Of a stretch of 64,000 bases of DNA, positions 2,815 through 62,083 are shown in pieces; the first letter of the stretch is position 1; the number at the start of each line of letters is the position of its first letter. Source of the DNA: Glaucostegus cemiculus. Its lineage: Eukaryota. The DNA lies in contig CDPCPM010000016.1 of the NCBI GenBank assembly GCA_976551045.1, forward strand, positions 8,060,001 to 8,124,000. Direction: 5' to 3'. The notes below the pieces were generated by a model, which worked only from the letters and a program-made list of their open reading frames with translations, was not told the origin of the DNA and searched no databases. The translations under genes were made by a program, and so were the position numbers.

Positions 2815-3817
2815 TAAACCAGTATACTCAATTAATAGCCATTTATTTTACAGAAATGTCTACATAAAGAAACAATTATATTTACGTTTTTAGTTCTTTT
2901 TCTCATTTACTTTCCACTACAGCAAGTCATTTGCCTAACATATCCTTTGAATATAATCTAAAAGTAAATTACTGCAGATAGTGTTTTGCTCTAACGCAGA
3001 AAATATTGGAGTCACTTAACAGGTCAAATAGCATCTGCAAAGAAAGAAACAGCATTACTATTTTAGACTGATGAATTTTCTTCAGAACAATCCTTATAAA
3101 GATCAGTAACCAAAAAGTTTGACCGACAGATTTGTCTACACCATTTTTGTGCTGTTAAACTGGCATTCCATTATTTCCCTGTTGCTACTTTAAGAAGCTC
3201 AAAAGACCACAATATTCAACAGAACACTTTTAGAAGCAATGGTCACACACCTTCATGTAATACCACACTGTTTCAGAAACAGCAGATGTTACTGAAAATC
3301 TCTAAACTGAATTTCTGTCAGTTGCTGGCACTGAGTTACGACATGAATCAGCCCTTATAGGTATCAATGCACGACGCCAGCAGCAGTCTTCCAGCTAATG
3401 GAGAGTGCTGGCTTCACCACTGATCCCTGAGAGCAGGGAGCATGCAGTGGACCACATCATTCATTGAAGCCCTCCAAGGCCAGGTAGACCTGGCAGAAAA
3501 TGCTACAGAGATCTCTGTAAAACATGGTTTTTAAATGCTAACTAATGTATAATTTACTACAACAATTGATCACTATATGATAGTGTATTAATGTCCAATT
3601 CACTCCTAGAAAATAAGTGTTTGAGAATGTTTCAGGAGAGTTTAGCAACTTCTGCAACTTTAATGTAATGTACACACCTTATTTAAAAAAAAACACTTCT
3701 CATTTTCTATTAGTTTGTGTCAAACTACTAAAACCCCATATCCCATATAAGCCCCGGGTGACATAAAATCAGGTGCAAAATTAGATGGTCAAAATCAAAA
3801 AAAAATTAAAATAAAAA

Positions 3818-4145
3818 GGGCAGCATAGCAGTACAGTTTGTAGAGTCGCTGCCTCACAGAATCAGAGATCCAGGTTCATTCCTGGTCTTGGGTGTTGGTT
3901 GTGTGGAATTTGTACATTCTGCTTGACTGTGTGGGTTTCCCCTGGATGCTTTGGTCTTCTCCCACATACCAACCTTGTATTGTCTCTACTGTGTAGGTGA
4001 GCGCTAGAATCTAGGGGGAGTTGGTGAGTATGTGGGGAGAATAAAAAAGTGGGATTAAATTAGGGTCAGTGTAAATGAGTAGTTGATGGTAGGCATAGAA
4101 ATGGTGGGCCAAAGGGCCTGTGCTGTATCTCCTTATGACTCTGTG
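3818..4145 (+). mobile_element. tRNA-derived V-SINE (HE1-like), decayed
   Basis: tRNA-like head with B-box-like GGTTCATTCC; V-domain-like GTGTGGGTTTCCCCTGGATGCTTTGGTCTTCTCCCACAT; CR1-type tail GGGCCAAAGGGCCTGTGCTGTAT...ATGACTCT. Family assignment from recall. Confidence 0.7.
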
Positions 4146-5435
4146 AATGCCATCAGTGGCAGCAAACATCTGTGGTTGGCCCACCTATTAGTGTGGGTTT
4201 ATGTAATGCAGATGGTGTCTGGTCAATGACCTCTCTAACGCAGCAGCAATTAGCAAACTGATATGTGACCTGTATCAACAGGTGTGGGCAGGAATGGTTC
4301 TAGACTAGTATGTTGAAAGTGAGGGTGAGTCTGACTGACCGTGAGAGCAAAGCAGGCATGTGTAAGGTTTAATAAAGGCACATGTGAGTGGGGACAACCT
4401 TGAGGAAGCTTAGCTTGCATGAATGTTGCTCCTCTGTGGCATAAATAAGAGGGTGGAACCCTATGATGCATGGGTGGATAAGACACCAAGCCCTTGTTTA
4501 CCTCTTGCAACAATTCTCCAAAGGTTTCTATGGTGCTTGAGAGTTCTGCATGGTTCACTCAATTTCCACGAAGAGGAGTATTGAGTAAAAACACGAGCTT
4601 GTAAAACCATTGGAACACAAAATCAGAAGCAGGAGAAGAGCATCCTGTCCTTGGAGCCTCCGCCATTCATCAAGATCATGGCTGATTGTTCTACCTCAGA
4701 CACATTTTCCTGCACTGACCCCATGTTCTTTGATTCCTTCAATATCCAGAAATCTATCGAATAGGCATTCAGAGTTAATTTTGGCCACAGTGTACTTTTG
4801 AAATTGAAAGGAAAGATTAGTTTTCTGTGTGAGCTGTGTGCAGGGTAAGCTCAGAGTGGGCAGAGTAATCTGCAGCAGTGTTGCTATGAATGCAGGTTTA
4901 ATATGAATGGCCCTTTAAGTAACATTGTTTCTGAGCTTTCAGTGTAGGTTAAAACTTCAGCTGTCCTTTCTCAGACCAATGTCAATGAAAATTTTGCTAC
5001 TGATGAATTTTGGGCATGATACTACTATCAATGTTGTTAGGGCAAGTTGAATGAACGAGAAACAATTTGAAATTCTCAGACACATTGACAATAAACAAAT
5101 AATGCTATTGGTTTGTGCTGAAGCAGCAGAAACATCTGAAAAATTCCTTCACTTCGTGTTAATGTAATATTCAATTTTACAACACCTTTTACTTAGTTAC
5201 ACCCAGATGAATTTCTAGTCTGTTGACTCTGTTTCTCTCTCCACAAGTACCACCTGTTTTATTCCTGTTCATGTCGTATTCAAAGTATTCATTGGAGTCC
5301 TGGAAGCATCACAGGATATGCATATTTAAAAACCAATATATTATGCATGCAGAAAGTGGTTATATTTAATGATCTGATTTCTTACTGTTTGGAAAATGAT
5401 AAACAAAATCTGTCAATGAAATGATGACTATCCAA

Positions 5436-5830
5436 ACTTTGAAAATATTCAGCAGGTCAGCCAGAAAATGTGGAGAGAGAAACGGTTAACATTTCACAGC
5501 AATTGAAAGTCCAAAAAGCTGCAGATGCTGGAAATCTGAAACAAGAACAGAAAATGCTAGAAGCCCTCAGCAGGTCAGACCTCATTTGTGGGAAGAGAAG
5601 CAGAGCAAGCACTTCAGGTTGAAGATATTGTTTCTCTTCCCACAGATGTGGCCTGATCTTCTGAGTATTTCCAGCATTTTCTGTTTTTGTTCTAGATTTC
5701 ACAACAATTACTTTTCGTCAGGTCATTGACTGTTTCTCCCCTCGCAGATGTTGCCTGACCTTCTGAGTATTTCTGGTATCTGCTGTTTTATTCTAGATTT
5801 CTAGTACCCACGGTATTTTGCTTTTGTAGC
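5436..5830. mobile_element. Two nested palindromic Penelope-derived elements
   Basis: Inner inverted pair (~5510-5700, e.g. CAGAAAATGCTAGAAG vs ATTTCCAGCATTTTCTG) sits between the left and right arms of an outer copy; flanked by ATTTCACAGCAATT (5491-5504) and ATTTCACAACAATT (5696-5709). Confidence 0.7.
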
Positions 5831-15810: not shown

Positions 15811-16164
15811 GTTCAAAGGGAAGGGAACATGTAGCAAAAGCCTATTTCTCCTGGACACAGCTCAGGGAGACACAGCTGATTCAATGTCTCAGATTGAAAG
15901 CTATGCTCAGTTTGGTTCATCACCTGCTCCAAACACTATTTGGAGCTATTCCCCAGCACCACAACTAATGGAGAAGACCTTCACTCAGGTTTTGCAGATC
16001 TGCCCAAACCGAATCCAGATCCAGTGATGACTCATTCTCCCATTGCTCTGAAAATGACTCTGGTTTAGTTAAGTTTGGCTCAATCACCTCTGCCCAGAGT
16101 GAGTGAAGATCAGGAGGCATGAAACCCAGACTGACTGACCAGGAGTCTTTTCTCACCTCCCCTT

Positions 16165-16635
16165 ACAGTAATGAGAATAAGGGAGGTGCAGGTGAATCTG
16201 TGTCACCTGAAAGGACTGTTTGAGTCCCTGGTGGGAGGTGGTGTAGGGGCAAGTGCTGCACCTATGGTGGGGGCAGTGGAAAGTTCCCAGGGTGGGAGCA
16301 GAATGGGTGTGGTGGGGAGGAGTGCCTCTTTTCTCAACCCCCCTTTTTTCCTCCTTACCTTGATCCCCCCCCCGTGTATCTGCTCTCCTCTCCTCCCCCA
16401 CACCTGCCTATCAATATCTCTTTCCTGCATCTACCTATCACCACCTTGTGCCCACCCTCCCTCCCCTCTTTTATCCACCTATCACTGCTCTGCTCTTCCC
16501 TCCTATATATTGGGCTTCCCCTTTTCCTATCTTCAGCCCTGACGAAGGGTCCTGACCCAAAATGTTGACCGCCGGCTTTACTCCATGGATGCTGCCTAGC
16601 CTGCTAAATTCCTCCAGCATCATCGTGTTTTTCAT
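16165..16635. mobile_element. Penelope-like element remnant with inverted structure and hammerhead-like motif
   Basis: Minus strand 16165-16300 encodes GTFHCPHHRCSTCPYTTSHQGLKQSFQV, resembling the Cys-rich linker before a PLE GIY-YIG nuclease. Plus strand 16330-16635 is a pyrimidine-rich tail followed by CTGACGA-A-GGGT-CCTG-ACCC-AAAA and the common arm sequence. Confidence 0.7.
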
Positions 16636-17256
16636 TCAGTTTATTGCAGGAGTTTGTTTACCACTTGCAATCTCATCGCTTTGATATGTTGACGCCTCAA
16701 TGTGCAACATGAGGACCATTCAATATTAGGCCTGCAATTCGTGCTTCTGACTCTCTGGGTTTCAAGTTATTTATTTTAGCTGTAGCTTCTCCACATTCTC
16801 GGGCAGCAAGTCACCCCCACAGTGCCCTCACACATCCCCAAGTGACCAGATGAAGAGTGTTTACAAAATTGTATTTGAAGATGCAAGATAAAGATGGAAA
16901 ATAAATAAAACTAGGAAATGTTAGTAAGAACATTTAATATATATAAATGACTTCCAGTATATAAAGTGTATTGTAGTAAAACTCTGGTAATCTGGCACCT
17001 GAGGAACTCTGGTGGTGTCAGGCAGGGAGATTTTTTTGATTGTCAGTGGTTGCTCCAATTGATACTCCAACACACTTTTAATTCATTTTGTTATATGGAG
17101 TATTATAAATTTTCCAGCTAGCTTGTGAAGTTGAGAGGAAGTGTAGAAATGAGTCAATGGTGAGTTTCAAGGGAGAGTGGGAAGGAGTAGGGCAAATGGG
17201 GCTCATTTTCTTCAGTTTTGTCATTGTGTGTAATATCCTCTAATTTTTGACAATAG

Positions 17257-19499: not shown

Positions 19500-19803
19500 N
19501 NNNNNNNNNNNNNNNNNNNNNNNNNNNNNNNNNNNNNNNNNNNNNNNNNNNNNNNNNNNNNNNNNNNNNNNNNNNNNNNNNNNNNNNNNNNNNNNNNNNN
19601 NNNNNNNNNNNNNNNNNNNNNNNNNNNNNNNNNNNNNNNNNNNNNNNNNNNNNNNNNNNNNNNNNNNNNNNNNNNNNNNNNNNNNNNNNNNNNNNNNNNN
19701 NNNNNNNNNNNNNNNNNNNNNNNNNNNNNNNNNNNNNNNNNNNNNNNNNNNNNNNNNNNNNNNNNNNNNNNNNNNNNNNNNNNNNNNNNNNNNNNNNNNN
19801 NNN
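19500..19803. other. Assembly gap (304 N)
   Basis: Run of N in the intron after window exon 11; a minus-strand CR1 fragment (WYGLPEEDAEIGTITMFKRHLDRYM) abuts its right edge. Confidence 0.99.
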
Positions 19804-20489
19804 AAAACCATTTCTTCCATGTACCTGTCTAAATGTCTTTTAAACATTGTGATTGTACCTATCTCTGCATCTTCCTCTGGCAGCCCATACCAACTACCCA
19901 TCACCGTCGATGTGAAGGAGGTCATCACAATTAACTATTAAGATATCCAAAGGTTACTCTGATGCCAATATTTCTACTGGTTAATCAAGTACCCAAACCC
20001 CGACACAAAGATATGGTCACCAACTGGAGCTCCCTCCAATTGCCCCAGTAAATATCCAGTGGCTCAAGGTCAAAGACTGAATTTGTTTACTTCCATTCAG
20101 TGTGATTCAGTGACTCAGTTTGTGAACTTAGTCACTCTGACTTAAGAGCCCCAGATACCCTGAGTGTTGAGTTATAATAGACCATTCTATTGGTTAAAAT
20201 CTGTATGCTACATTTTATAACAGCTTCATTGGTTAAGATACTGAAGATAGATTATGTTAAATAAAAAATACACTTTGTTAAACAAAAGGACTTTCAGAGA
20301 CAGAGAGGAAGAGTCTTTTTCTGTTTCCAGAGAGAAACATGCAATTTCCATAATATTTGTCTCAGGCATATTGTCCATATTGAACCTATGTGATTCTCTG
20401 ATTCTTTAATGTATTTTAAGAATTCTCTGCTCACTTTTCTTCAATTCAGAATTTACTTCCTCCACAGTACCTTCCACTGTCATGCATAT

Positions 20490-20668
20490 TAAATCAAAGC
20501 ATAAAACAGAAAATGCCAGAAATACTCAGTAGGCTGTACAGCGTCAACACAGAGAGAAAAATCAAAGTTAATGCATCAGGTTGCATCAGAAAGTTGAGGT
20601 GCTGCCTGTCCTCCTGAGCATTCCCAGCATTTTCTGATTTTAGTTCACATTCCTGTATCTGCTGTACT
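20490..20668. mobile_element. Decayed palindromic Penelope-derived element
   Basis: CAGAAAATGCCAGAAATACTCAG (left arm) vs CTGAGCATTCCCAGCATTTTCTG (right arm). Confidence 0.6.
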
Positions 20669-20804
20669 TGTATGGTTGTATCCTGCTAACTTCTGTAACT
20701 TACAATTCTCTCTTTGGGACTCTTATCTTCAAAAAGGTAAAAACAAAAATCTTCCATTATTCGTGTATCTGTAATGATGTAGCTTCTAGCATTTTCCTTA
20801 CTAA

Positions 20805-25833: not shown

Positions 25834-25913
25834 AAGATCTTTGTGCTTGTTTGACAGCTCTGGTGAAGAGGCATTCTGCCAAACAACTTTGACAGTCAGC
25901 TTGGGAAACCACC
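25834..25913 (-). repeat. 80-nt inverted duplicate of 26641-26720
   Basis: Reverse complement matches 26641-26720 at 79/80 positions (hand alignment). Confidence 0.95.
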
Positions 25914-26469: not shown

Positions 26470-27150
26470 CGTTGTCCCCAGTGTTGCCTTGGAACTTTCC
26501 ATTCAGTTAGACCATGCTGCATCACTTGACCCTCTTAGAACGCTTTACCCAAAATAATGCTTCTGATGACGTCGGTCAGGCAGTGGTTTATGTGAAGTGT
26601 CATCATAGCTGTGCAGGGAAAAACACAGTGGATCCAATGGGGTGGTTTCCCAAGCTGACTGTCAAAGTTGTTTGGCAGAATGCCTCTTCACCAGAGCTGT
26701 CAAACAAGCACAAAGACCTTCAGCTGTCAGTGACAAGGCCATCCTTTAAGATTGTTCATGTATGGCTGGAATATCAGCGTTTATGACAGCTGCACTGGAA
26801 GTGAGACCATTGCCTGTCTCCTTCTGAATGTGCTTTGTCACAAAGCTCTGGGAAGATATAAACAGTGAGCGAGTTGGTGGGATTGTCGAGATTTGGCCCT
26901 AACAGCTGAATACCACAACAATTTATGCTGTGCAGTCTGCTGCTGGGGACACACACTACAAATATCAACTGCTCAGTGCAGTGAAAGACATCCTCTTGTC
27001 TGCCCAAATCTCACTTTTCTTCTAGAGCTCAAAGTTGTCCATGATCAAGTGCTGCAAACTTGCACAGTCCAAGATCCAGAACCATGTCCTCAGGGATGTG
27101 CTGAAGACACTGCAAAGTGTGCAATTTAAGACCTTCCCGCCATTGCATAC
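26470..27150 (+). mobile_element. Tx1/L1-clade LINE ORF2 C-terminal remnant
   Basis: KNTVDPMGWFPKLTVKVVWQNASSPELSNKHKDL and a downstream CCKLAQSKIQNHVLRD-like segment resemble the zf-RVT region of fish Tx1-like elements (recall). Confidence 0.55.
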
Positions 27151-27885: not shown

Positions 27886-28226
27886 ACCATTTTTAGTTCA
27901 TGATAAATTAAGGGTGAAAAGTCCTGTCCAATGCAATGCTCAGCGAATTATACTATAATTTTGACAATAAGATGTTCTGCCTCTAATTTAAACCTCACTG
28001 ATTAAATTTTCTTTTTCTAGACTGTGCTGTCACACTTTATTACATGTATTATCTTAGGTTACTCCAAGGGCAAAATGCATGGGATCATATCTCTTGCATT
28101 AACTTTAGCTAAGGGGGGCGATGGAGAGGTGAAAAGTACAGAATGGTTGCAAGAATGAAATCATAAATATGTAACTTCGGTATTGTCAGGTTTCCAATTT
28201 CATCTTCATCGTTTTGTCTTCTATAG

Positions 28227-28361
28227 GTTTTACAGGAGACACTTTGCCCTACTTGGGACCAGTTGCTGGTGTTTGACAACATTGAGCTGTATGGTGAAGC
28301 ACAGGAACTAAGAGATGACCCTCCCATTGTGGTCATTGAAATTTATGACCAGGATACTGTG
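28227..28361 (+). CDS. OTOF: OTOF window exon 15 (135 nt), C2D
   Basis: ctatag|GTT...GTG|gtaag; encodes [45 protein letters not shown]. Confidence 0.96.
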
Positions 28362-28710
28362 GTAAGGAGCCCAGATACCTTTTGTTAAACAAAAAGTTGG
28401 ACATTCTAATTCCATAAAAAGTTTTAATATTGTAAACCACTGTGAAAATAGGTCATAAGTTCTCTCAATTAAATGAGAGTGTAATTCAGTACATGCATTT
28501 AAAGATTAGCATATACAATATCTGTTAGAATTCCCAAAGGTTCCCAGGAATTTGCTGCATGAACAGGAAAATGTCTTTCAACCAATGAAGTCTTTACTTC
28601 ACTGACATTATGGTATTTGATCTGTCTTAAATTCCACCCATGACCACTGAAGTGTACCCAATCTTATTTCATGCATTATTCATTCTTTAATCAGTTAGCC
28701 TCATTACTAT

Positions 28711-28936
28711 GAAGACACAAGAAAGACTGCAGATGCTGGAAATCTGGAGAAACACACAAAATGCTGGGGGAACTCAGCTGGTCAGGTAGCACCTAGGAGG
28801 GAAGTGGACAGTCAACATTTTGGGTCGAGACCTGCGTCCTGATGAAGGGCCTCGACTCGAAACTTCAACTATCCATTTCCCTCCATAGATGCTGCCAGAC
28901 CCATTGAGTTCCTCCAGCATTTTGTGTGATGCCTCC
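28711..28936. mobile_element. Palindromic Penelope-derived element with central minimal hammerhead motif
   Basis: ~80-nt inverted arms (28753-28832 / 28848-28928); centre GTC-CTGATGA-A-GGGC-CTCG-ACTC-GAAAC at 28836-28863. Confidence 0.85.
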
Positions 28937-29610
28937 TTAATATAATACTTCAATGATTTCAGAAACCAGGAATGACAAAAGAACTCAGCCATCACTCTGT
29001 GCTCTTTATCTTTGAAGCTCTTGACTCTATTCCTAATTAGGCATTCAGCCATTTTTTAAAGTAATGTCACTGCAGTATTAGCAAAGTGAAATTTGTTTCA
29101 GTAGTAGTTTCATTTATTTTCAATGTGAATTAGTGAATGAAAGTTGAAGATGATGCAAAATGAATAACCGTTTGCTCTTGCCCATTGGTGCCCTTCCCAA
29201 AGATCTTCACATCATGTTCCTTCTATGCCTCTTTACTTGCAGAACAGCTGATTCAAGCAGACCGCTTCTCAGAGGCAATCTTAATAAACCCAGGGCATGG
29301 TTTTGAGGCAGATAAATGTCCCTTTCATATCCATGATATTCCTTGCACTCTAACATTGATTGGACACTATTGCTATGGTCTTTTCCTTCCCCATCATTAT
29401 TTTGAATCTTTCCTTCAAGACATAAACACATTTATGTTTCTGTTCCAATGTTGCATTTACACTCATATACATCCACTATTCTATAAACCATTCTTTGAAC
29501 TCAGTCAGATTTTGGTGCCTGCTGTCATCTTATGTCCATGGGGATCCATGCAAGGGATATATACAATAATGTGGTTCATTTAAGAACAGTACACCAACCA
29601 ACCAAAATGA

Positions 29611-30423
29611 TGTCAGAACCATCCTGTTACAGTCTACTGACCATTGTGACTATGACTAAGCCACATGGAGAATGAAAATGGTAAAGGTAAAAGGTCTTTA
29701 TTCATCACAACAAGCAGGCGTTCTCTTGGAGACATTCTCAGTAGAGTCTCTCCAAACTCAAAGTACATCGTTTTTTTATACTCTTAAGAACAAAGATAAA
29801 CAGCAGGTAATTCAATAAAATTTCAATAGCTACAATGACATTGTTTACTTCAATATTTTATGTCCAATAAATAGTTCCATTGAAGTACATAATACCAATG
29901 GGACCACAGTTTAAATAACAAAGCACCTCTGAATGTTCAACACACCTTTCCTGAGGCAAAGAAATTCACATGGATGGTCCAGGAGCTTCTGAGGACCCAA
30001 ACACCCAAAATTAGTGTTGTGGAGGCTCTCTCTCTGGGTACACAGTCATCCCAATTATTGATAGAACAAATATGCCTATGACCATGTTTGATGTGCTAAG
30101 TGACAAAATAAGTCTGATCTGGAACCACCTTTAATGTCAGTCACAATGATGCAAGATAACTTAACTGAAGGTGTCTGAAGCCTGGTTTTGATATAGGCCA
30201 ATTTCTTATACCCCCATTGTCTTACATTTGGCTGGTGCATATGATAATATCTCAGGGTAATGTCAGTTTGCAAACCAGATTTGCTGTGGGCAGAGCTGTG
30301 CTGTGTAAAGAGTACTGTTTGTTTACAAAGCTATCCATTTAATTTCAAAACTGATTGCTGCTTATTGGTTTAGATTTGTAGAGTTTTTTTAAAGACAAGT
30401 TCTCATTTCTATTAATGCCTACA
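29611..30423 (-). mobile_element. Possible solo LTR (ERV-like), antisense to OTOF
   Basis: TG...CA bounds; on the minus strand CCAAT (30368-30364), TATAAAA (29780-29774), a hairpin, then AATAAA (29702-29697) in U3-R-U5 order; no convincing target-site duplication. Confidence 0.4.
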
Positions 30424-31499
30424 AACTACATAATTCCTGGAGGATAATCTTTGTCTAACAATCTTCAATATGGACCAATGGAATAAAAAAAGGACTATAT
30501 AGTACATTCCATCATGAAAATAAAACAACTTAACTATGTTAAATAATATATTAGGATAGATGACCTTGGATTGTGCATTTTGAGATGAGAATGATATACC
30601 ATATTATCACTTTGGTTCAACATTTACTATCTTCCTGATAAGACCCTTGTAAGCTTTGATTTCCATGTACTGATATTAATAAATAAGGGCTGATTATATG
30701 TTTTTGCTTTTTTTTTCTCTCTTATTCACTCTATTGCTGGATGCCTTGTGCACCATGGGCTAAGTAGAGTTTGCATTGTTCAGGTTTGCTGTAGTTTGAA
30801 TAGCATTAGAAAAGATTTTCATTAGATTAGGTAGCTCACTGTAAAATGATGCAACAACCAGAATTTCTGTCTGTTATGTTCCTACTATAATTCAAGTGAA
30901 AACAGTATTGCACCTTTAAGTCCATAGCTATATATTTTGTGCAGTAAAAACATGTATACTAGTGCTAAACAAATATTAAGAGTGTTACATGCTGCTTTAA
31001 CATGATATTCCTGTCAAGCACATTCTGCTTTATTTTCATCTAATTTTCAAATTGAATTTCATTCAATATTTAAATCACCAATACATTATATTTTTGATTG
31101 ATTTCTCATGACTTCTGCTGTGCTCAGTGGAACAGGAGGCAAATCCAGCAGCCAAACATTTAGCACCTATGAGTGATATAACTAGCCTAGATTATTTTGT
31201 GGGTTAATTGTTTACACCACAATCTATATATTCCTTGTTGTACCATCACCACCAAGCCTGACATAGATATGGCTGCTAAGAGCAGCATGTGATGTTTTTA
31301 GTCTGGGGCTATCAATGCTGTGAAACTGCCTGACAAAGCTATCTACATGGCAAGCAACATACAGTATACATAGATGTATGTAGACCTATGGCTAAACAAG
31401 TAGACTCTATAACTGTTCTATGTGCAAAACTCAAGGTGCTTCCCAATTTTTCTTCCAAATGTCCCAGCTCCAACTTAAGGATCAAGTCCTCCTGTTCTG

Positions 31500-33000
31500 A
31501 ATTCCCCCCCCCACCCCCCACCAGAAGGAATATCTTTTTTCTACATAAATACTATTGAATCCTTTTATCATTTGAAACACCTCATGCATCAACCTTCTGA
31601 ACTGAAGGGGATACCAGCCATATTTATGCATTCTATCCTCTTATCATAACCTTTTAGACATACCTCTAGTAAATATTTGTGCTCTTTCCTGTCAAGGCCA
31701 ATATAACTAACCTAAGATTTGGAGTCCACAAAAATACATATATTCTGAAAGGGAAATGAACAAAGTTCTATGCAACTGAAACGTCACATCCTACATTGAG
31801 TTCTAACTCCCTTAAGGAAAAGACCAATATTCCATTATGATTATTTATTTTACTTGACTGCTAGCTTTGGTGGTTTGCGTACATGACATCTAAATGCCTT
31901 TGGTCTTCCAGAATTCCTGGCTTCCTTCCATTAGAGAAGTTCATTATTGTGATATCTACAGTGGATGAATGAAGTCCATCTGCTATACCTTTGTCTACTT
32001 ACCTAATCTATTTTCCTTTGGAACTTATCGACACAACTCACTGTGCTTCCTAACATTGTGTCCACTGAAAACCAACTTGTACAATCATACAAATTAGCAG
32101 CAGAACACCATTTGGCCCTTTTACCCCCTTTCAAGAATCTTTCTACTTCTGCATTATAAAATATTCAACGATTCAGCTTCCTTCACATTTGAGGAAGAGT
32201 ATTCCAAAGACTCTCAACCCACTGAGAGAAAAATCGTCACCTCATCTCTGCCTTAAATGGGCAGCCCTTTATTTTTGAACAGTGTCCTCTCATTTTAGAT
32301 TCACAAACAAGAGGAAATGCCCTATCCAGTCCATCCTATCAATGACCCTTGGGGTCTTATCAATTTGCCTCTGCTAAACACCAGCAAATACAACCCTGTC
32401 TATTCTACCTTGCCTCAGACAACCTGCCCATTCCAGGAGTGTTTAGTAAATCATCTCCAAACTGCAACACATTTGCATCCTTCCTTAAATAAGGAAATCA
32501 GTACTGTATATTGTACTCCTGATGTGGTCCTACAGTGCTTTACATATCTTAAGCATAACCTCCCTGCTTTGTATATTCTACTGCCCCAGCAATAAATAAA
32601 ACATTGTTCACTGCATCTTCATCTTAGCCTTTTGTGACTCATGCACCAGGACATCTATATCATTATGAACGTCAGACCTCTGCAATTGATACCATTTGAG
32701 TAACGTGCTTGTGTTTTATTTTTCCTAGCAAAGTGCACAGTTTCACCTTTTCACACATAATGTTCCCTTTGGCACACCTTTGACCACCCATTAAATCTGT
32801 CTACATCTCTGTATTTGCGAGATTGCTTATGTTTAATTCATAACTACCGTTCCAATCTATCTTTGTACCATCAACAAATTTAGCAACCATACATCTGGTG
32901 CCATCTTCTTTTCCTACCTCCCAGTCAATGGAGTTTACGATTTACATTGAGGCCTCAGAAAAGATCTTGATGGAACACCACATCCTGCCGATCAAAAGAC
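31500..33000 (-). mobile_element. Old CR1 LINE fragments (probably two)
   Basis: Typical CR1 antisense motifs such as GAAGAGTATTCCAAAGACTCTCAACCCACTGAGAGAAAAAT, CTTTGTACCATCAACAAATTTAGC and TCCTTAAATAAGGAAATCAGTACTGTATA. Confidence 0.6.
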
Positions 33001-33290
33001 AAATCTCAATTCTGTCACCTCCCTTCTAACTAATTACTGACCCCTGCCTCAAGGTTTCCTCCAGGAGTGACATCCTTTGTCATTGTGACTGGATCATTAC
33101 TCTGGAATTCCAGACATAACATTACTTTGGCGATACAAATCACCACAAGCAATGTAGCAGAGTAAAGGACAGGCATATGGGCAACTAAGGTATGCAATAA
33201 ATATAGCCTTGCCAGCATCACCCAACTGATGAGATCAATTGCGAATATCCAAAATGGTTGATGGAAATATCACAAAAGCCTTTGGCTGTA

Positions 33291-33543
33291 ATTTATTTAT
33301 TTATTATTTATTTACAGCGTGGTAACAGGCCCTTTCGGCCCAACGAGTCCGCGCTGCCCATTTTAAACCCCCAAATTAACCTACCCATACGTCTTTCAGA
33401 ATGTGGGAGGAAACCAGGGCACCTGGAGGAAACCCACACAGACACGGGAGAACGTACAAACTCCTTACAGTCAGCGACAGGAATCGAACCCCGATCACTG
33501 GCGCTGTAACAGCGTCGCACTAACCGCTACGCTATTGTGCTGC
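33291..33543 (-). mobile_element. Young tRNA-derived V-SINE
   Basis: Minus strand has A-box TAGCGTAGCGG, B-box GGTTCGATTCC, V-domain GTGTGGGTTTCCTCCAGGTGCCCTGGTTTCCTCCCACATTC and tail GGGCCGAAAGGGCCTG...(TAAA)n; many CpGs retained. Confidence 0.85.
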
Positions 33544-34202
33544 AAGCTTCCTACTATGTAGTTTCACTATTTTTATCCATGCTGAGCAATCCATGCTGAT
33601 GTTTTATTTTCATGTGAAGGCAGATTCCAGATCAAATATGATGCTCCCTTCATGTTGCTCGTGATTGTTTAGTTATCTAGAAATAGGTGATTGAATCAGT
33701 CACTAGACTGTGCAGAGAGTTGACAGATGCATGGAAGGAAGACCAGGGGTAAAATGGGGAAAAAATGGATTAAAACAAAGCAATTTGTTTCTTTTTCTTC
33801 TGAGGAGTATCACGTTAAAGACTGGTTAACGGTTCTTAAGTTAAATAACATTTTCTGTAGCAATCATAACTTTAATTTGTCAACTGTTAGTTTACCTCTG
33901 CAACAATATTTTCTGTTCTGCATGTCATCAGGATAGACTTGAATCTCTCAAAAAGAGTATTCCATTGATGACGTTACAAATCTTTAAAATGAGTGTTCTC
34001 ACAAAATCTTTACTAGCTGTGAGCATTTGCTCACACCATGAAAATCTGTCTTCTTTTGAAGATTCCCAGTATTATTTGAAAACTCCATATTAGCTACATG
34101 ATCTCTCCAGTCAATCTGTATTGTAAATAATTATTTAACATTTACCAAACAAAACAGATGAAGTGCCCAATGTCCATCTAACCAGTTGCAACACAATGAC
34201 AT

Positions 34203-34430
34203 TGCAGTTATGTTACTGGACCAACAACCCAAATAAGAAGTCAGGCACATATTGGCAACTGGAGAACTTAAAATCAGTTAATAAAATAAATCTGAAATAA
34301 AATGCTCATGTAATGAAACTACTTGATAGTCATAAATATATCTGTCTAGTTTACTTGTGTCCTTTAGAGATTGAAACCTGCCATTGTACTGTGACTTCAG
34401 ACCAGTAGTAATATGGTTGAGTTTTGACAA
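34203..34430 (+). mobile_element. Decayed SINE, possibly MetaSINE-type
   Basis: TCTAGTTTACTTGTGTCCTTTAGAGATTGAAACCTGCC...GTGACTTCAGACC...ATATGGTTGAG resembles the recalled core GGTTCACTAATGTCCTTTAGGGAAGGAAATCTGCC. Confidence 0.4.
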
Positions 34431-34499
34431 GGCAGGCAATTACTCTGCTCCAATATGGCATCGGATTCCAAGATGTCCCATACTCAGTTAGCACCTGGC

Positions 34500-34625
34500 A
34501 AAAGTAGAATACTGCAGCTGCTATAATTCTGAACTAAAAATAGAGAATGCTGGAAATACTCAGTAGATCAGCCAACACTTTCAGAGAAAGAAACAGGAGC
34601 TTGTGTTTCAAATCCATGACCTTTT
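34500..34625 (-). mobile_element. Single arm of the Penelope-derived palindromic family
   Basis: ACTGCAGCTGCTATAATTCTGAACTAAAAATAGAGAATGCTGGAAATACTCAG matches the left arms at ~5520 and ~61180. Confidence 0.55.
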
Positions 34626-34639
34626 ATCCTTTATTATCA

Positions 34640-35560
34640 TCACCATCACCAACCCTGTGCACATCCTGTCAAACGGTGATAGAGAGGAACCATAGTAGTA
34701 CACAGTCATGGAACTTGTCAAGGTTCACTCCCAGGCTCAGGAAGTTCTATGTCATCAACTCAAAGGTGGTTCCGGTTATCACCTGCAGCCCACTAATGAA
34801 TCAGCACTACCCAATTTTGAACATTATTTGGAAGAAGTGGTGAGAGCAAACAGTGGGATATTCAACCTGGCCAGCTCAGCCTTAAAGGACACCACCCCTA
34901 GAATGGATCTGCAGCACGTGGAGATAGAAACAACAGAAGGAACCAATCTACCTGTTCCAGATCCATTTCTCCATGACAGGATTGGCAGGAATAAAAAAAC
35001 ATTGCACAGTCATTGTGAAGATGACACCCCATCTTCATAATAAGGAGACCTTCCATCAGCATCTCTGCTGTGCTGGATGGGTCTGTCAGCTGATTCTAAA
35101 AATCCATTAAATGCTGTGAACTGTCAGTAGCAGAGGGACTATTGTCTATCACAATCTTTTATTTTATGGCCCACCTTGCTCTTCCCTCAATCAATGCATT
35201 TGTTGGTAAGCACCATTGATCACCTACACATTCACTTACTCGTTCAACATCTTGCCTGGGCTTCTTTTACAATACTTCCCATACCTAGTGACCTCAGTCA
35301 CCTCAAAGGGCAAAGGCAGCGAGCAGAATGGATTTCCACCACCTCCAGATTTCTTTCCTAGGCATTCTTGGTTTAGAAAACAAAACACATTTCCTTCATT
35401 GCCAGTTCTTAATTATCCTACTGTTCAAGTTCCTGGGACCACTCATGTGCATCTTCACCACGTGAACTGCAGTAGCCCAAGATGGCAGCTGACCATTGAA
35501 GGATTGGTAACAAATGTTGACCTTGCCACTGACATCAATATCCTGTGAATGAATTTTAAA
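34640..35560 (+). mobile_element. Internally deleted LINE (endonuclease remnant joined to 3' end), same family as 7975-8680
   Basis: ORF 34708-35040 (ESALPNFEHYLEEVVR...TNLPVPDPFLHDRIGR) resembles an APE-endonuclease region; 3' tail CAAATGTTGACCTTGCCACTGAC...GAATGAAT. Confidence 0.5.
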
Positions 35561-36096
35561 ATGTCAAGGCTTGTTTGTTACTTTGAGGCAGTTTGCAAGA
35601 CTAATATAAATAAAACTTAGGCCAATGATGCAAGGAACAAATTGTTATGGTAATTCAGTAAAAGTAAACCAATGGAATAATTATTTTTGAGAAAATTCAG
35701 AGTGTTTGAGTTTCTGAGTTTTAAAGGACTTTAGACAATCTGTAGATACGGATCATTTTACAGAACATTATGACTTTGGTTAACCCTGCCACTAACTTTT
35801 CCATCTTATGAACACAATGAAATGCCAAACAAAACAGCCTTCAAAGTTTGACATAGACCCGGTAAGAACAATTTTAAAATTAATATTTGATGTTTACAGT
35901 AGTCATATAGTAGAGTGGTAGAAGAAATAGACAATAGAAATATTTCTATAATATAACAGATGTTACAGACAAGGATTCCCAGAACAATTGTAAAAATCAA
36001 AAACAGTAATCTAATGTGTTCTGAAAACAAACTATAACATCCAAGTTCCTGTTAACCCCTGTGGACCATGTTGTAGGGCATTCAGCCCTCTCTTGA

Positions 36097-36456
<360 letters not shown>

Positions 36457-43364: not shown

Positions 43365-43920
43365 GTAAGTATGACCTTTATTTTATCCCTTTTGTGACCT
43401 TTACTGTAACCAGGAGCTTTTAGAAATTGAAATGCAGAGATCACAATTCCATTGGACCAAATGACAGTGGATCTCAAGGTCTTAACTTCATTAAATAAAG
43501 CTCCTGCTATGTAACTGACAGTCCAGTTTGAAGTTAACATGTGATGTGTGGGTCTCCCAAGGATCAGAAAACTCAGCGATAAAGTGGACACTAGAACTGT
43601 AGGTTCTACAAGATAATTGACTGTTGCTGCACTTCACCTGAGGCAGGGGAGCCTCTCCAGACCCCTTCATTAGTCACTGCCTCTCTAGACTAAGGCTCTC
43701 GCAATCACATGGGATGTGCTAGTGAGGTTAGCAAATTTGGCAGGGGGATTGCTCCCACTGTCAAGTAGATCGAGTGCTTGAATTGAGCCCTTCAGACCAG
43801 GAAACTTGCAGCTCGCTTGTTTGATCTCTGCTGAGCTAGTTCCCTTCAACTGGGTCAGTAGTGAGGTCATGGCAAGCAGCTTCCCTGTGTGAAGAAGATA
43901 AACAGATAACAAACAAGATT

Positions 43921-44104
43921 CTGGTCAGGCAGCATCTGTGGAGGGAAATGGACAGTCGACGTTTCAGGTGGAGATCTTCAACAGATAAGGGCCTTGACCC
44001 GAAACATCACCTGTTTCCCTCCATGGATGCTGCCTGACCCGCTGAGTTCCTCCAGCAGCTTATGGTTGCTCCAGATTCCAGCATCTGCAGTCTCTTGTGT
44101 CTCC
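43921..44104. mobile_element. Palindromic Penelope-derived element with hammerhead-like motifs on both strands
   Basis: GGTCAGGCAGCATCTGTGGAGGGAAA vs TTTCCCTCCATGGATGCTGCCTGACC; the minus strand reads CTGTTGAAG...ACCT-GAAACGTC-GACTG (43984-43953). Confidence 0.85.
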
Positions 44105-44871
44105 AATCAATCAGATAAATTGCAGTGGCTGATCCCAGCCAGACATGTCAAAGAGGATGGGGCAGGAAACTCGAAAGAACAAGAGAGTGCTGGCATTGGT
44201 AAAGAAAGGAATTAGCAGGTACTTGTATAACTGGGACAGGAGGGGTCAGTTCTTGCAATCCTGAATGATGTTGTTCTAGCACTGGCAAAGGTATCAGGGT
44301 GGAGTGTGAATTAGACAGATAATCTTGAGCACCTCCTCCTTCTGGTATCAACTGTATTGCAAGTTTGTTTCTGTAATGAATGGTATTTCTCTGGCAGCAG
44401 TTAGGGGAATGGACCTTCATGAAAGGATTGGAAGAATAAAAATGACAATGTTGATCAACAGCAGTGAGGTGATATGAGATGTGTTGGTCCATCTATTACT
44501 CCAGTCTGACAAAACTCTTCAGGTGAAGCTGCTGTTTTGATCTGAGATTTAATTCTATTGAGTCCATGGATACATACAGGAAACTTTCTAACTGACTGTT
44601 CAGGTGGAGCTGTAGAGTTTCAATTTGCTGGTAATTCATGTCCACAAACTTGTTTTTTATTTCAAATTTTAATTATTTTTTAACAATGTTTTGAGTTTTC
44701 ATACTATCCAAACATATAGAAATGTTTATATTATCCATGTGAATCTGTGTTCCATTCTTGTTGTCTTTGTCTATTTATAATTAAGATGGAGAGAAAATTA
44801 ATTTGATAAATGTGCTACCAATTTTGTGTTGTTGACATCATCTCATTTTGTCTGTTTCCATTTGATGACAG

Positions 44872-52767: not shown

Positions 52768-53053
52768 AGATATCTTTATTAGTATATCGAAATACACAGT
52801 GAAATGCATCATTGTGTAGAGTGTTCTGGGGGCAGCCTGCAAGTGTCGCCATGCTTCCAGCACCAACATAGCGTGCCCACAACTTCCTAACCCGTACGTC
52901 TTTGGAATGTGGGAAGAAACCAGAGCACCCAGAGGAAACCCACGCAGACACAGGGAGGATGTATAAACTCCTTATAGACAGCGGCCTGAATTGAACCCGA
53001 GTCGCTGCTGCTATAATAGCGTTATTCTAACCACTACACTGCTGGGTCTGCCC
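52768..53053 (-). mobile_element. tRNA-derived V-SINE with a non-CR1 tail
   Basis: Same head and V-domain as 33291-33543, but the 3' part reads ...GCATTTCACTGTGTATTTCGATATACTAATAAAGATATCT. Confidence 0.8.
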
Positions 53054-53595
53054 TAAAAGGTGGAGAATTGGAACTGACTGAATTGCCCAACTAAGCTGGC
53101 AGACACTTGATAGGTCAGATGTTGTCCTGGATTGTACCAATTCTGTGATTCAATAAATATATTTTAAGATTATTGTCTTGCTGATGAGAGGAGTTAGTTG
53201 GAAAAAAACAGCAGCAAGGAAAATATTAACTTATTTGAATTTTGTTGAGTATTCAAATAGTCAAAACCTAAAATTGAAATTGAACCTCCTTTTACATCTG
53301 GGTGCAGCTGTTTTCAGCCAAGGTTTAGATAATCAAAAGCTAAACTTATTTACATGTAGTTCAGTTTTGGTAACTAAAAGCAATAATACCGGACCTTAAC
53401 ATAAGTCCGTTCAATACAAATGTTATATTGAAAAAGAAGTTAAAATTACATTAAGTCATGAAGAGAGTTCAAAAGCTGTGCCCTTTACATATATTTTCAC
53501 TAATTACACTTTGCATTAATCTTACAGGTAGGGCAATTGACAAAATTGCTTAAGCAGTAAAATGTTTCAAATAAGAAATAAAGAAACTTCAACAG

Positions 53596-54520
53596 TAGTT
53601 AAATTTATTGTCAAATGCACAAGTACATGGATGTACAGGTGCAGCAAAAAACTTACAGCAGCATCACAGGCACATGGCACCATATAAGCAGCATCCATAA
53701 GAAAAACATCAATTAAACATAAATTATACCCAGTTCTTACAAGGAAGAACACAATTAGAACAAAACAAAACATGGTCCATTTATGTACAAAGTGGTCATA
53801 GTGTTGTATAGTTATTCCAATTGGTTCAAGAACTGAATGGTTGAAGGGAAGTAGCTGTACTTGAATCTGGTGGTGTGGGGATTCAGGCCTCTGTACTTCC
53901 TGCTCGATGGTAGCTGTGAAAAGATGGCATGGCCTAGATGCTGGGGATCTTTGATGATGGACGTTGCCTTCATGAGGCAGCACCTCCTGTAGATGGTGGG
54001 GAGGGATGTGCCTGTGATGTATTGGGCTGAGTCCACTACTCTCTGCAACTTCTTGCATTCCTGCACATTCAAATTGCCGTACCAGACCATGATGCAACTA
54101 GTCAGGATACCTTCAACCGTTCATACGTAGAAATTTTTTAGAGTGTTTGGTGACAAACTGAACCTCCTTCATGTCTTAAGAAAGTAAATTTTCACCCCCA
54201 CGTTCACCTCCTTCCCCTTCCTGAAGTTAACAATCAGCTCTTTAGTTTTACTGACGTTGAGCAAGAGGTTGTTGTTTTGGCACCACTCAACCAGGTGTCC
54301 TACCTCACTCCTGTACGCTGACCCATCACCGCCTGTTATTCGCCTAACAATAGTGGTGTCATCAGCAAATTTATATATGGCGTTGGAGCTGTACTTACCC
54401 ACACAATTTTGTGTATATACAGAGTAGAGCAGGGGGCTAAGCACGCAGCCTTGAGGTTCACCTGTGTTCATGGTCAGCGAGGAGAAGATGTTGTTACTAA
54501 TCCTCACTAATTGGGGTCAA
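53596..54520 (-). mobile_element. Rex1/Babar LINE, 5'-truncated with internal deletion
   Basis: RT motifs TGEPQGCVLSPLLYSVYT, YKFADDTTIV and WCQNNNLLLNVSKTKELIVNFRK; C-terminal WYGN...LQRVVDSAQYITGTSLP...TTRFKYSYFP typical of Rex1/Babar. Confidence 0.88.
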
Positions 54521-59506: not shown

Positions 59507-59756
59507 GTACAGTAAACTAAAGAGAAAAGAGCTATTGGAAAAGATCATACAAGGTAATCTTACAAGAGTGCTTCCAGCAGGAGTCTTGTCCACCACAAGT
59601 ATATTGAAGTATCAACAATTATGACTTTCAGATCAGAATGAACCTGGAAAATAATGATCAGTGTACCGTGAGATTTCAGATATGTACTCCCAGCAAGTAC
59701 AGCACTCCACCAAGACCATAGATGGCCAAATTATCATATTTTAGTGTAGATAAGCG

Positions 59757-59965
59757 CAAAGCACTACAGAAGCTGGAAATTTTGAATGACGTAGCAAACT
59801 GCTGAAAATATTCAACAGGCAACCTCAGTGGAGAGAGAAACAAAGTAATGTTTCATTAGTTCTGATGAAAGGTTATTGACCCGAAATGTTAATTCTGTTG
59901 CTTTCTCCACAGATCCCACCTGAGCTGCTGAACATTTCCAGCACTTTCCACTTTATTTCTGATTC
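59757..59965. mobile_element. Palindromic Penelope-derived element (second subfamily) with hammerhead motif
   Basis: Inverted arms around AGTT-CTGATGA-A-AGGTTATTGACCC-GAAATGTT-AATT (core at 59862-59868). Confidence 0.75.
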
Positions 59966-61155
59966 CTCTTCATACCTTAGAGTCTATTTGGTCATTGAGA
60001 AATCTAAGCCTATCATAGAGTCTGCCTTGGTATTATACTTTAGGTCAGATTTCTTGAAGGTAAAAATGGCTTTCCAAGAAACCCTAAGCAGAATTCAAGG
60101 CTGATCATTTGTGAACCAAATAATCCCAGAGAAGAAGCCAGACCATGGACCAAAAGACCAGTCTTTGTGGCAGAAAGAACTGTACAATTGTCCATGCCAA
60201 TTAGTGGACACGATCATCAAAGGTCACTTTCCATCTGATTAAATATTGGCCTGGAATCCCTGGTAAGATGCTCAGCAACCGGGGTCACCAATGATATAGC
60301 TGCTCCAACCTGGAGTAAGTGTCTCTGCATGCATCTCCACAAAGGAGCTGGCTCCAACCTGGTCAGCCATACGCCATCCCACTGAAGTGCTTTGAAAGCC
60401 AATTAAGCCACACTGCAAAGTTGCAGCAGCTGTCAAAGATTATATAACAACATAAAGAACAATTAAAATGCTGAAAGGCAAGTATACCTAAGTTAATGGA
60501 AATTATAAAACTCTAAATAGCCTTGAATCTATTTCTCTCTCAGTCATTCCTCTCCATTAGGATGAGTGCAGTTTCTGGGTCCAGTGGCATGTTTTCCAGT
60601 GTATCTGCCTGGAAATCTCTACATGCTCCAGCTGCACTGTTGATCTCCATGAGGAATCCAGCACATAAACACAGTCGTCCTGTCAGCGGTCATCAGCCAA
60701 GGTGGAAGTTCACAATTTCTGAGTTCATGCCTGGTCGCACAGGAGTCCTGAGTTTCCACGCTTAGAAAGCACAAAAAGCTGGCTGTTCCACATGGAGTTT
60801 CTGGCTTTTTGGTAGAAAATGTCTGCAGTAAGAGGCTATATATTTATATCGTCCAGAAAAATGACCTGTAACAATATACTGTGGGTGTGATACTTCTATT
60901 ACATTATTTGCTTTTATTAGGCTGGCTTGTTACATCAGATTGGTAACATAAAGGCTCAGACCAAAGTAAAAGAAAAAAATTTCAGAAAGTACGGAGCACT
61001 GGCCATTACAAGTGTGTTAAGTATCTGCTGAATTATTCTGACTCCAGCCTGGACCTACTTCACGTTCTTCCAGTCGATCTATGGAAAACTGATACCAGAT
61101 ACAAAAGACCCAGCTACCATAGGTCTCCCTATATGGAAGATACTTCCAGAGAATG

Positions 61156-61392
61156 AAAATAAAATCAAAATCCAAAAACTGCATATGCTGGAAATCTGAA
61201 ATAAAATCAGAAAATGTGCAAGCACTCAGCAGGTCAAACACCATCTGTGGAAGGAGAAACAGCATTAATGTTTGAGGTCAAAGACCCTTTCATTTTGACA
61301 AAGGGTCTTCAAGCAGAAACATTATTCTCTTTCCTTTTTCACAGATGGTGTCTGACTTGCTCGATGTTTCTGCATTTGTTTTATTTTAAATT
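61156..61392. mobile_element. Palindromic Penelope-derived element, decayed
   Basis: AAGACCCTTT...AAAGGGTCTT at the centre (~61281-61309); ACACCATCTGTG vs CACAGATGGTGT in the arms. Confidence 0.75.
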
Positions 61393-62083
61393 TTAAAAAC
61401 ATCCATCCTGGTTTTTAACTATCTGTCATTAATGAATTCCACTCCCCTGTTATCTTGCCAAGTCGATCCCTCCACTCAAATTTGCACTCCAGGAAAATCT
61501 GATGCATTATTTGCACCTGATGCCATCAAATTTATTTGTTGTTTTTTTTTTCTCATGGATAGAAATACTATACTATTTGTAGAAAAATGTTTGATAAAAG
61601 AAATCACTTCAGTATAACAATTGGGAAATGATAATTCTCATACCAGCTAACTCAAGAGCGATCACTTTTGTTACTTACCTGGTGGAAAATTACTTGAAGT
61701 TCTATAATTTAACCTTCTACACTGAAAAAGTGGGATCCTTTATTATTTATGCATCAGGACCCATGGTGTCTTTGGAATATTTACTAATGGCTGGAGCCTA
61801 GAATTCGCTGAGACTTTCCTTAGAGGTGCAAAAAATAACTTGAGGCCAGAGAAAAACATAATTAATGTCTTACTTTCCAAAGGGATTAGGAGACGAAAGG
61901 AACTGATTTGAGGCCAGCAAAGTAAACTTCAGCCTCTGCTACTGCAAAAAAAAACCATGGCCCATGAGTTGTGAACTGGACTCCAGAGCTAATGCTATCT
62001 CTGGGCATTGTAGAAAGCATTTTGCAAATCAGCATGGTGCTATGAATAACTAACTTGGAAGTTGCTTTCTGTGCAATTTTTAG

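Follow-up and report, generated by a model that had tools for sequence, protein, structure and literature searches.

A hairpin in an otoferlin intron as a likely fossil insertion of a Penelope-like element, carrying a decayed hammerhead ribozyme predicted to be inactive

Insertions of EN+ Penelope-like elements (PLEs) show a signature described in the available portions of two papers (PMC8557442, PMC3846280): an inverted, 5'-truncated copy of the terminal sequence (pLTR) with a tail of 30-40 bp on one end. Minimal hammerhead ribozymes occur in metazoan PLE pLTRs, mostly in solo copies (Cervera and de la Pena, 2014; PMC4209133), and the same source, in its available text, describes hammerhead pairs on opposite strands, 100-700 bp apart, in Schistosoma. 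Cleavage by hammerhead dimers is credited to Luense et al. in the accessible text of PMC6765202. For the green anole, PMC11167929 describes a Poseidon protein that in vitro cleaves the two strands of the target and extends each of them, and whose reverse transcription starts internally at two sites downstream of the hammerhead, one on either side of the tail. Animal non-LTR retrozymes, of which the accessible text of a preprint mentions one chondrichthyan host among those sampled (bioRxiv 10.64898/2026.07.22.740005), form a further related group. The locus analysed here shares with EN+ PLE pLTRs, as far as the available portions of PMC8557442, PMC3846280 and PMC2377424 go, the head-to-head layout, the tail on one end, the lack of a fixed target site duplication (TSD) and the existence of solo pLTRs. 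Ordinary PLE insertions have already been published with such an inverted pair and its one-sided tail; here the two halves are short enough for the whole insert to be a hairpin of 190-240 nt without an open reading frame, and the window has about one locus per 4 kb. With retrozymes (same preprint; PMC7229834, available text) the hairpins share a non-coding, PLE-related sequence and a type I hammerhead; retrozymes, however, are head-to-tail tandems with one ribozyme per unit on one strand, whereas all paired copies found here are inverted and have variable junctions.

The window, that is, the whole stretch of 64,000 nt that was analysed, is part of the otoferlin gene on the plus strand: the exon at 36244-36405 matched solved otoferlin (E 5e-25) and was 100% identical to the otoferlins of sawshark, sawfish and electric ray, which identifies the host as an elasmobranch. 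The flanking exons allowed us to infer the GT donor and AG acceptor of a plus-strand intron at 28362..36243, and the element lies 350 nt from its start. Other features of the window were recorded as well. An assembly gap of 304 N occupies 19500-19803. Two inverted arms of 80 nt (25834-25913 and 26641-26720), 99% complementary and 727 nt apart, look like a young DNA-transposon-type or fold-back insert separate from the hairpin family. A further repeat has three copies (3924-3967, 33399-33448 and 52905-52954) and presumably resembles the tail of shark SINE/L2 elements, and degraded reverse transcriptase frames at 53567-54516 (minus strand) are LINE-like and, we assume, probably of L2/CR1 type.

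Positions 28711 to about 28932 folded as a single long hairpin of -121.9 kcal/mol (z -11.8), a stability reached by none of 200 shuffled sequences. This agreed with the original prediction, made from the letters alone, of inverted arms enclosing a hammerhead core, which was found where it had been placed (28839-28862). The expected long double-stranded stem in the otoferlin pre-mRNA was also supported: a stem of about 75 bp is predicted in the sense strand of the intron. The minus strand folded at -118.1 kcal/mol, and comparison of the two energies gave no sign of selection for a sense stem. Read outward, each arm of the family consists of the hammerhead, about 74 nt and an optional extension of about 30 nt. 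The left arm (28711..28832, minus strand; profile E 3.6e-24) is a PLE 3' end that runs from inside helix II out to the tail end, and the right arm (28836..28932, plus strand; E 2.9e-19) is an untailed PLE 3' end that starts 30 nt before the predicted cut. The tail of about 30 nt (28711..28739, minus strand) was detected in the left arm (p 0.002 against random window stretches) and not in the right one (p 0.99); folding predicts a small stem-loop whose loop contains the untailed end. Between the arms, three nucleotides (28833..28835) fit neither of them and form the head-to-head junction, with loose contig ends at 28832 and 28836.

To determine the distribution of the family, a profile was built from the window arms and searched against the window, with the reversed window as control (best E 1.2). 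Fifteen loci were obtained, comprising all 13 places of the original list of about a dozen copies plus those at 1879 and 42682; most arms scored E 4e-11 or better, and three hits of E 0.8-2.3 were discarded as noise. With boundaries drawn by the analysts, these loci cover about 3.8% of the window. Eight of them are single arms or fragments: the arm at 2970..3081 (minus strand), with a CUGAAGA core, and those at 1879, 5217, 6506, 24585, 34500, 38584 and 42682. Seven copies are two-armed, and in every one the pair is inverted. Apart from the 28711 copy they lie at 43915..44106 (same subfamily as 28711, one arm tailed), 5433..5830, 5514-5702 (nested at the centre of the preceding copy), 20484..20680, 59755..59968 (with an intact CUGAUGA at 59862) and 61156..61404, the last three belonging to a second subfamily. 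A tree of 19 arms, from which arms shorter than 55 nt were omitted and, as from the profile, the row at 13.3-13.6 kb, separated the two subfamilies (split 91/98). Wherever both arms of a hairpin could be placed they fell in the same subfamily. The two partners of a hairpin mostly did not resemble each other more than they resembled other copies; those of the 28711 copy are 80% alike mutually and 85% alike to the 6515 copy.

The abundance of the family was also apparent in four public DNA runs, one of which (X1) may come from the source species. Contigs mapping to 28100-29600 at 80% likeness numbered 10,071, 24,244, 26,546 and 19,817, figures that count contigs and not copies, and their depth piled up on the element, with flanks near single-contig depth. 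Pattern scans of metagenome contigs and of viral contigs gave no matches. The right boundary of the 28711 copy was bridged by contigs of two organisms (B and C) and the left one by a contig of a third (D), over 34-39 letters and with flanks 5-8% different. Since the position is common to related species with flanks diverged to this extent, the insertion is old and predates several of them. The locus is an ordinary one, an old and decayed retroelement stub.

The clearest regularity of the family is the one-sided tail. Exactly one arm was tailed in all seven two-armed copies (p<0.05, one of them marginal at 0.047; p at least 0.49 for the other arm), which would have a chance of 0.008 if arms were tailed independently at 0.5, and the loose ends in the four runs fell into the same two classes, tailed and untailed. 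No fixed TSD, either TA or 8 bp, was found in the seven copies at their approximate boundaries; such duplications were what the original prediction had named as evidence against itself. These results bear on the possibility that the hairpins are miniature inverted-repeat elements (MITEs) of a DNA transposon and that the hammerhead-like core is a chance likeness. Short, palindromic and abundant copies are what a MITE would give, and neither the core pattern by itself nor covariation rose above chance (see below). MITEs have equal terminal inverted repeats and a TSD of fixed length, whereas here the ends are unequal by about 30 nt in 7/7 copies, the TSD is lacking, arms extend inward into longer unique sequence and CUGANGA recurs at constant spacing in four copies of two subfamilies. 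We consider this explanation highly improbable. Almost as little weight is given to two separate insertions, in which a later arm would have entered the hammerhead region of an earlier one in opposite orientation. PLEs have a tendency to land on copies already present (PMC6765202), and the copy 5514-5702 within the hammerhead region of 5433..5830 suggests an insertion into the element's own sequence; nevertheless, the presence of exactly one tail in 7/7 copies and of same-subfamily arms points to single events.

The junctions were then compared. Taking the cut site as 0, the inner ends read by eye in six copies (the outer nested copy was unreadable) were -18/-30, -25/-27, -24/-28, -8/-31, -16/+2 and +22/-30, so that the central junction differed in all six. 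Of the 15 listed joints (from a total of 182), those that span the centre within one strand all differed and were supported by at most two contigs per run; no dominant alternative junction was present among these 15, although contigs tend to break at hairpins and a common junction could therefore be hidden. Joints between opposite strands were better supported and reflect arms that continue into the tail. In run X2, one contig links the end of an arm (28927) head to tail to a hammerhead start (28873), and the three letters that precede its core are those found at the junction of the 28711 copy (28833-28838). These two cases, the only ones, could be a hint of a tandem or circular unit of about 100 nt.

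The variability of the junctions told against the central idea of the original prediction, in which two inverted PLE ends were assembled a single time into a non-autonomous hairpin retroelement that PLE proteins then multiplied as a whole. Its merits are that short copies are very abundant and coding sequence is almost absent from the window, that mobilisation in trans is possible for pLTR sequences by themselves (PMC3846280), and that 7/12 readable inner ends lie between -24 and -31, a grouping that could alternatively represent deletions from one master hairpin. A unit copied as such would hardly be expected to show six junctions in six readable copies without a dominant joint among the 15 of 182 listed, 8/15 loci that are single arms or fragments, arms mostly no closer mutually than to other copies, and a core buried by the stem, and we regard this origin as unlikely. 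Where the inner ends cluster, the family carries a short TCAG/CTGA inverted repeat (-33 to -24); this repeat, a transcription start or a splice acceptor there are candidate explanations of the cluster. The repeat would also suit a PLE origin by self-priming, in which the strand folds back at the quasi-palindrome at the hammerhead front and is copied back, and the endonuclease trims one end, a process proposed for head-to-head pLTR junctions with palindromes (PMC3846280, available text). Several junctions lie far from the inverted repeat (-8, -16, +2 and +22), and a fold-back yields equal ends unless trimmed, whereas two reverse transcription starts directly explain the one-sided tail. Although self-priming is in our opinion an improbable origin, it remains a fair rival to double priming.

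The arms look like the 3' ends (pLTRs) of a PLE. An inverted, 5'-truncated terminal copy tailed on one end was present in all seven two-armed copies, and the minimal hammerhead lies upstream of the tail, in the pLTR position, as judged by core and spacing in four window copies; the proposal that Penelope-like termini make up the hairpin thereby gained support. Many of the loose ends showed arms continuing into a pyrimidine-rich upstream region similar to that of a longer family member at 16330..16648 (plus strand), which consists of this region (about 200 nt), a core (16539-62) and an arm. Upstream of its core there are a TATA-like motif (16504-10, plus strand; single copy) and, 31 nt further on, an initiator-like motif (16533-39, plus strand) that coincides with the helix I 5' strand. 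TATA plus initiator motifs have likewise been noted in a pLTR among rotifer PLEs (pLTR papers cited above). The stretch 16504-16539 also resembles a splice acceptor, with a pyrimidine tract plus CAG, and a splice acceptor is reported at the corresponding site of a Drosophila virilis element (PMC4209133, available text).

Beside this copy, an inverted and frameshifted fragment of 57 degraded codons (16156..16326, minus strand) contains a CX4CxxC motif (about 16250-16280) followed by FTC. This combination was found a single time in the window, next to the longest copy, against 0.275 expected per window, in a test whose FTC part was added post hoc. A CX2-5CxxC motif upstream of GIY-YIG marks Neptune, Nematis and Naiad elements (PMC8557442, available text), and from its letters the fragment is probably a Neptune-type PLE linker with the start of the endonuclease. 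The anole element, which is active, belongs to the Poseidon clade, and this linker is absent from Penelope/Poseidon according to the available sources. Word search, Pfam, phmmer and ESM Atlas gave no support to the PLE-like peptide: phmmer returned three unrelated repetitive proteins, and ESM Atlas one match at 0.75. No reverse transcriptase of a PLE was found in the window, so that of the linked reverse transcriptase and GIY-YIG frame just this degraded fragment beside one copy is present. The structural link to PLEs is stronger than the one through the CX4CxxC fragment. Three further candidates were rejected: a purine-rich tract at 15.5-15.8 kb as left arm of the 16.3-16.6 kb copy (25/200 shuffles scored equally), a C-rich stretch at 13.3-13.6 kb as second PLE end (no Pfam match, no arm match), and the single blastn match of 16100-16640 to phages, judged to be chance.

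The hammerhead of the 28711 copy (28836..28871, plus strand), delimited by reading the sequence and comparing copies, is a decayed one of minimal type I. It comprises a helix I 5' remnant (28836-38), CUGAUGA (28839-28845), an unpaired A (28846), helix II (28847-28858), GAAA (28859-28862), a mutated helix III and cut site (28863-66) and the helix I 3' strand (28867-71), all on the plus strand. The CUGANGA/GAAA core between helices I and II is intact, and in this respect the original description of the copy was correct; the letters it had assigned to the family around the core did not hold here, where ACUUC and CAAC stand in place of the family ACGUC and CGAC. A ribozyme motif on either strand, also expected, was not found: the minus-strand arm ends inside helix II without CUGANGA, and the full core is present on one strand only. 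The proposed CAGUC 5' strand of helix I was upheld by the loose contig ends, which in 4/4 runs finish in CA just before 28836.

Rfam reported no hammerhead at the gathering score across the window and none at E<=10 locally, where there were sub-threshold matches to miRNA hairpins and lncRNAs alone. The exact core pattern had one match in the window, and at least one match was obtained in 12/100 shuffles, which is within chance. Since Rfam is silent and the bare pattern is within chance, the reading as a hammerhead draws on where the motif lies and on its recurrence: four window copies of two subfamilies retain CUGANGA with constant spacing, its position 7 being U, C, U and A, a variation as expected of a free position, and the loose ends restore the CA of helix I in 4/4 runs. 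Covariation among the five usable old window copies did not rise above shuffles (score reached by 369/500); where the subfamilies have A-U versus G-C in helix II, the change was not taken as compensatory, since decay of CpG yields the same letters.

Hammerheads of metazoan PLEs (PMC4209133, available text) share with those described here the type I core, an unpaired base between 9 and 10.1, the pair G10.1-C11.1 and a palindromic 15.2-16.2; helix II has 4-5 bp here versus 7-8 there, and no shark or ray example was seen in the available part of that source. In the 28711 copy the palindrome (dimer helix III) is lost and the NUH cut site mutated, the sequence reading ACUU; ACGU is retained in the 6515 and 43921 copies. 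The first pair of helix I is also broken, leaving this helix partly disrupted, helix II is down to three pairs, and the stem sequesters the core, so that a core-compatible fold costs 19.7 kcal/mol. Given the loss of ACGU, the lost helix I pair and this cost of opening the core, the 28711 copy is predicted from the modelled folds to be catalytically dead, as the earlier doubts about present-day activity had anticipated. The comparison supported the view that helix III of this minimal type I hammerhead can form only between two copies, and the inverted arms of a hairpin cannot make it together, since only one of them is sense-oriented in any transcript. The sole likely present-day effect of the 28711 copy is its stem in the otoferlin pre-mRNA.

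Majority letters of the loose ends gave CAGAUGA instead of CUGAUGA at 28832 (runs X1 and X2) and at 28868 (X1). This change of U4 to A was read in groups of 85-261 contigs, numbers that mapping bias may inflate. These contigs possibly come from a large subfamily whose core is variant or dead; a standard core may have been absent from part of the family from the outset, and their frequency among the loose ends suggests a feature that sets the family apart from the hammerheads in the available text of PMC4209133.

Since junctions are variable, no joint dominated among those listed and no fixed target duplication was found, de novo formation of the hairpins at every PLE insertion is more likely than their copying as a retrozyme or MITE unit. 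We consider it likely that the 28711 hairpin is a fossil PLE insertion, probably of Neptune type, and that it arose by head-to-head joining of two cDNAs of the end of the element, both short and 5'-truncated. The PLE endonuclease would nick both target strands, and reverse transcription would start inside the element RNA at either of two positions separated by about 30 nt, whose distances downstream of the hammerhead cut are roughly 74 and 103 nt, giving one untailed and one tailed arm. Synthesis of both cDNAs would cease at lengths of 80-140 nt, often where the hammerhead begins, and repair would join them, leaving each hairpin with its own junction. The hammerhead would be a passenger of the pLTR that acts only as a dimer in tandem PLE transcripts; with the arms of the inverted product on opposite strands, they would form a long stem and no mutual helix III. 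The anatomy, one-sided tail, variable junctions, abundance, shared position and mutations were observed; the steps themselves are our inference, with double priming borrowed from the in vitro study of the lizard Poseidon-clade element. With that system (PMC11167929) the hairpins share an untailed end in a stem-loop and, as proposed, two reverse transcription starts bracketing the tail; the distance from the cut site is about 74 nt in the hairpins versus about 85-92 nt in the anole, as subtracted from the published numbers. The TATA- and initiator-like motifs at the first hammerhead base of the 16.5 kb copy led us to a more tentative version, possible but doubtful, in which the hairpins are paired run-off ("strong-stop"-like) cDNAs: reverse transcription would begin internally near the transcript 5' end, both strands would be primed from the two start sites, and synthesis would run off at a transcription start located at the first base of the hammerhead. 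The fly promoter is TATA-less (PMC2377424, available text), which tempers an explanation by transcription start.

A literature search returned no paper on this elasmobranch hairpin family; shark motifs may appear in supplementary material to PMC4209133 or to the preprint cited above, and Dfam, Repbase and subscription journals lay outside the scope of the search. Ordinary as the 28711 locus is, the family constitutes a very large natural data set on how PLEs finish integration, a completion described as not yet validated in the available text of PMC11167929, and genome-wide statistics of junctions and tails could separate double priming from self-priming. The intronic hairpins are also candidate ADAR substrates; heavy editing has been described for Penelope in a lizard and for a palindromic repeat in a frog (PMC5625713, available text). 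If the run-off reading were true, the genomes of sharks and rays would preserve natural snapshots, tens of thousands in number, of the still unsolved later half of Penelope integration; they would also supply intronic dsRNA on a large scale and might harbour a CAGAUGA variant of the hammerhead core that is both natural and common.
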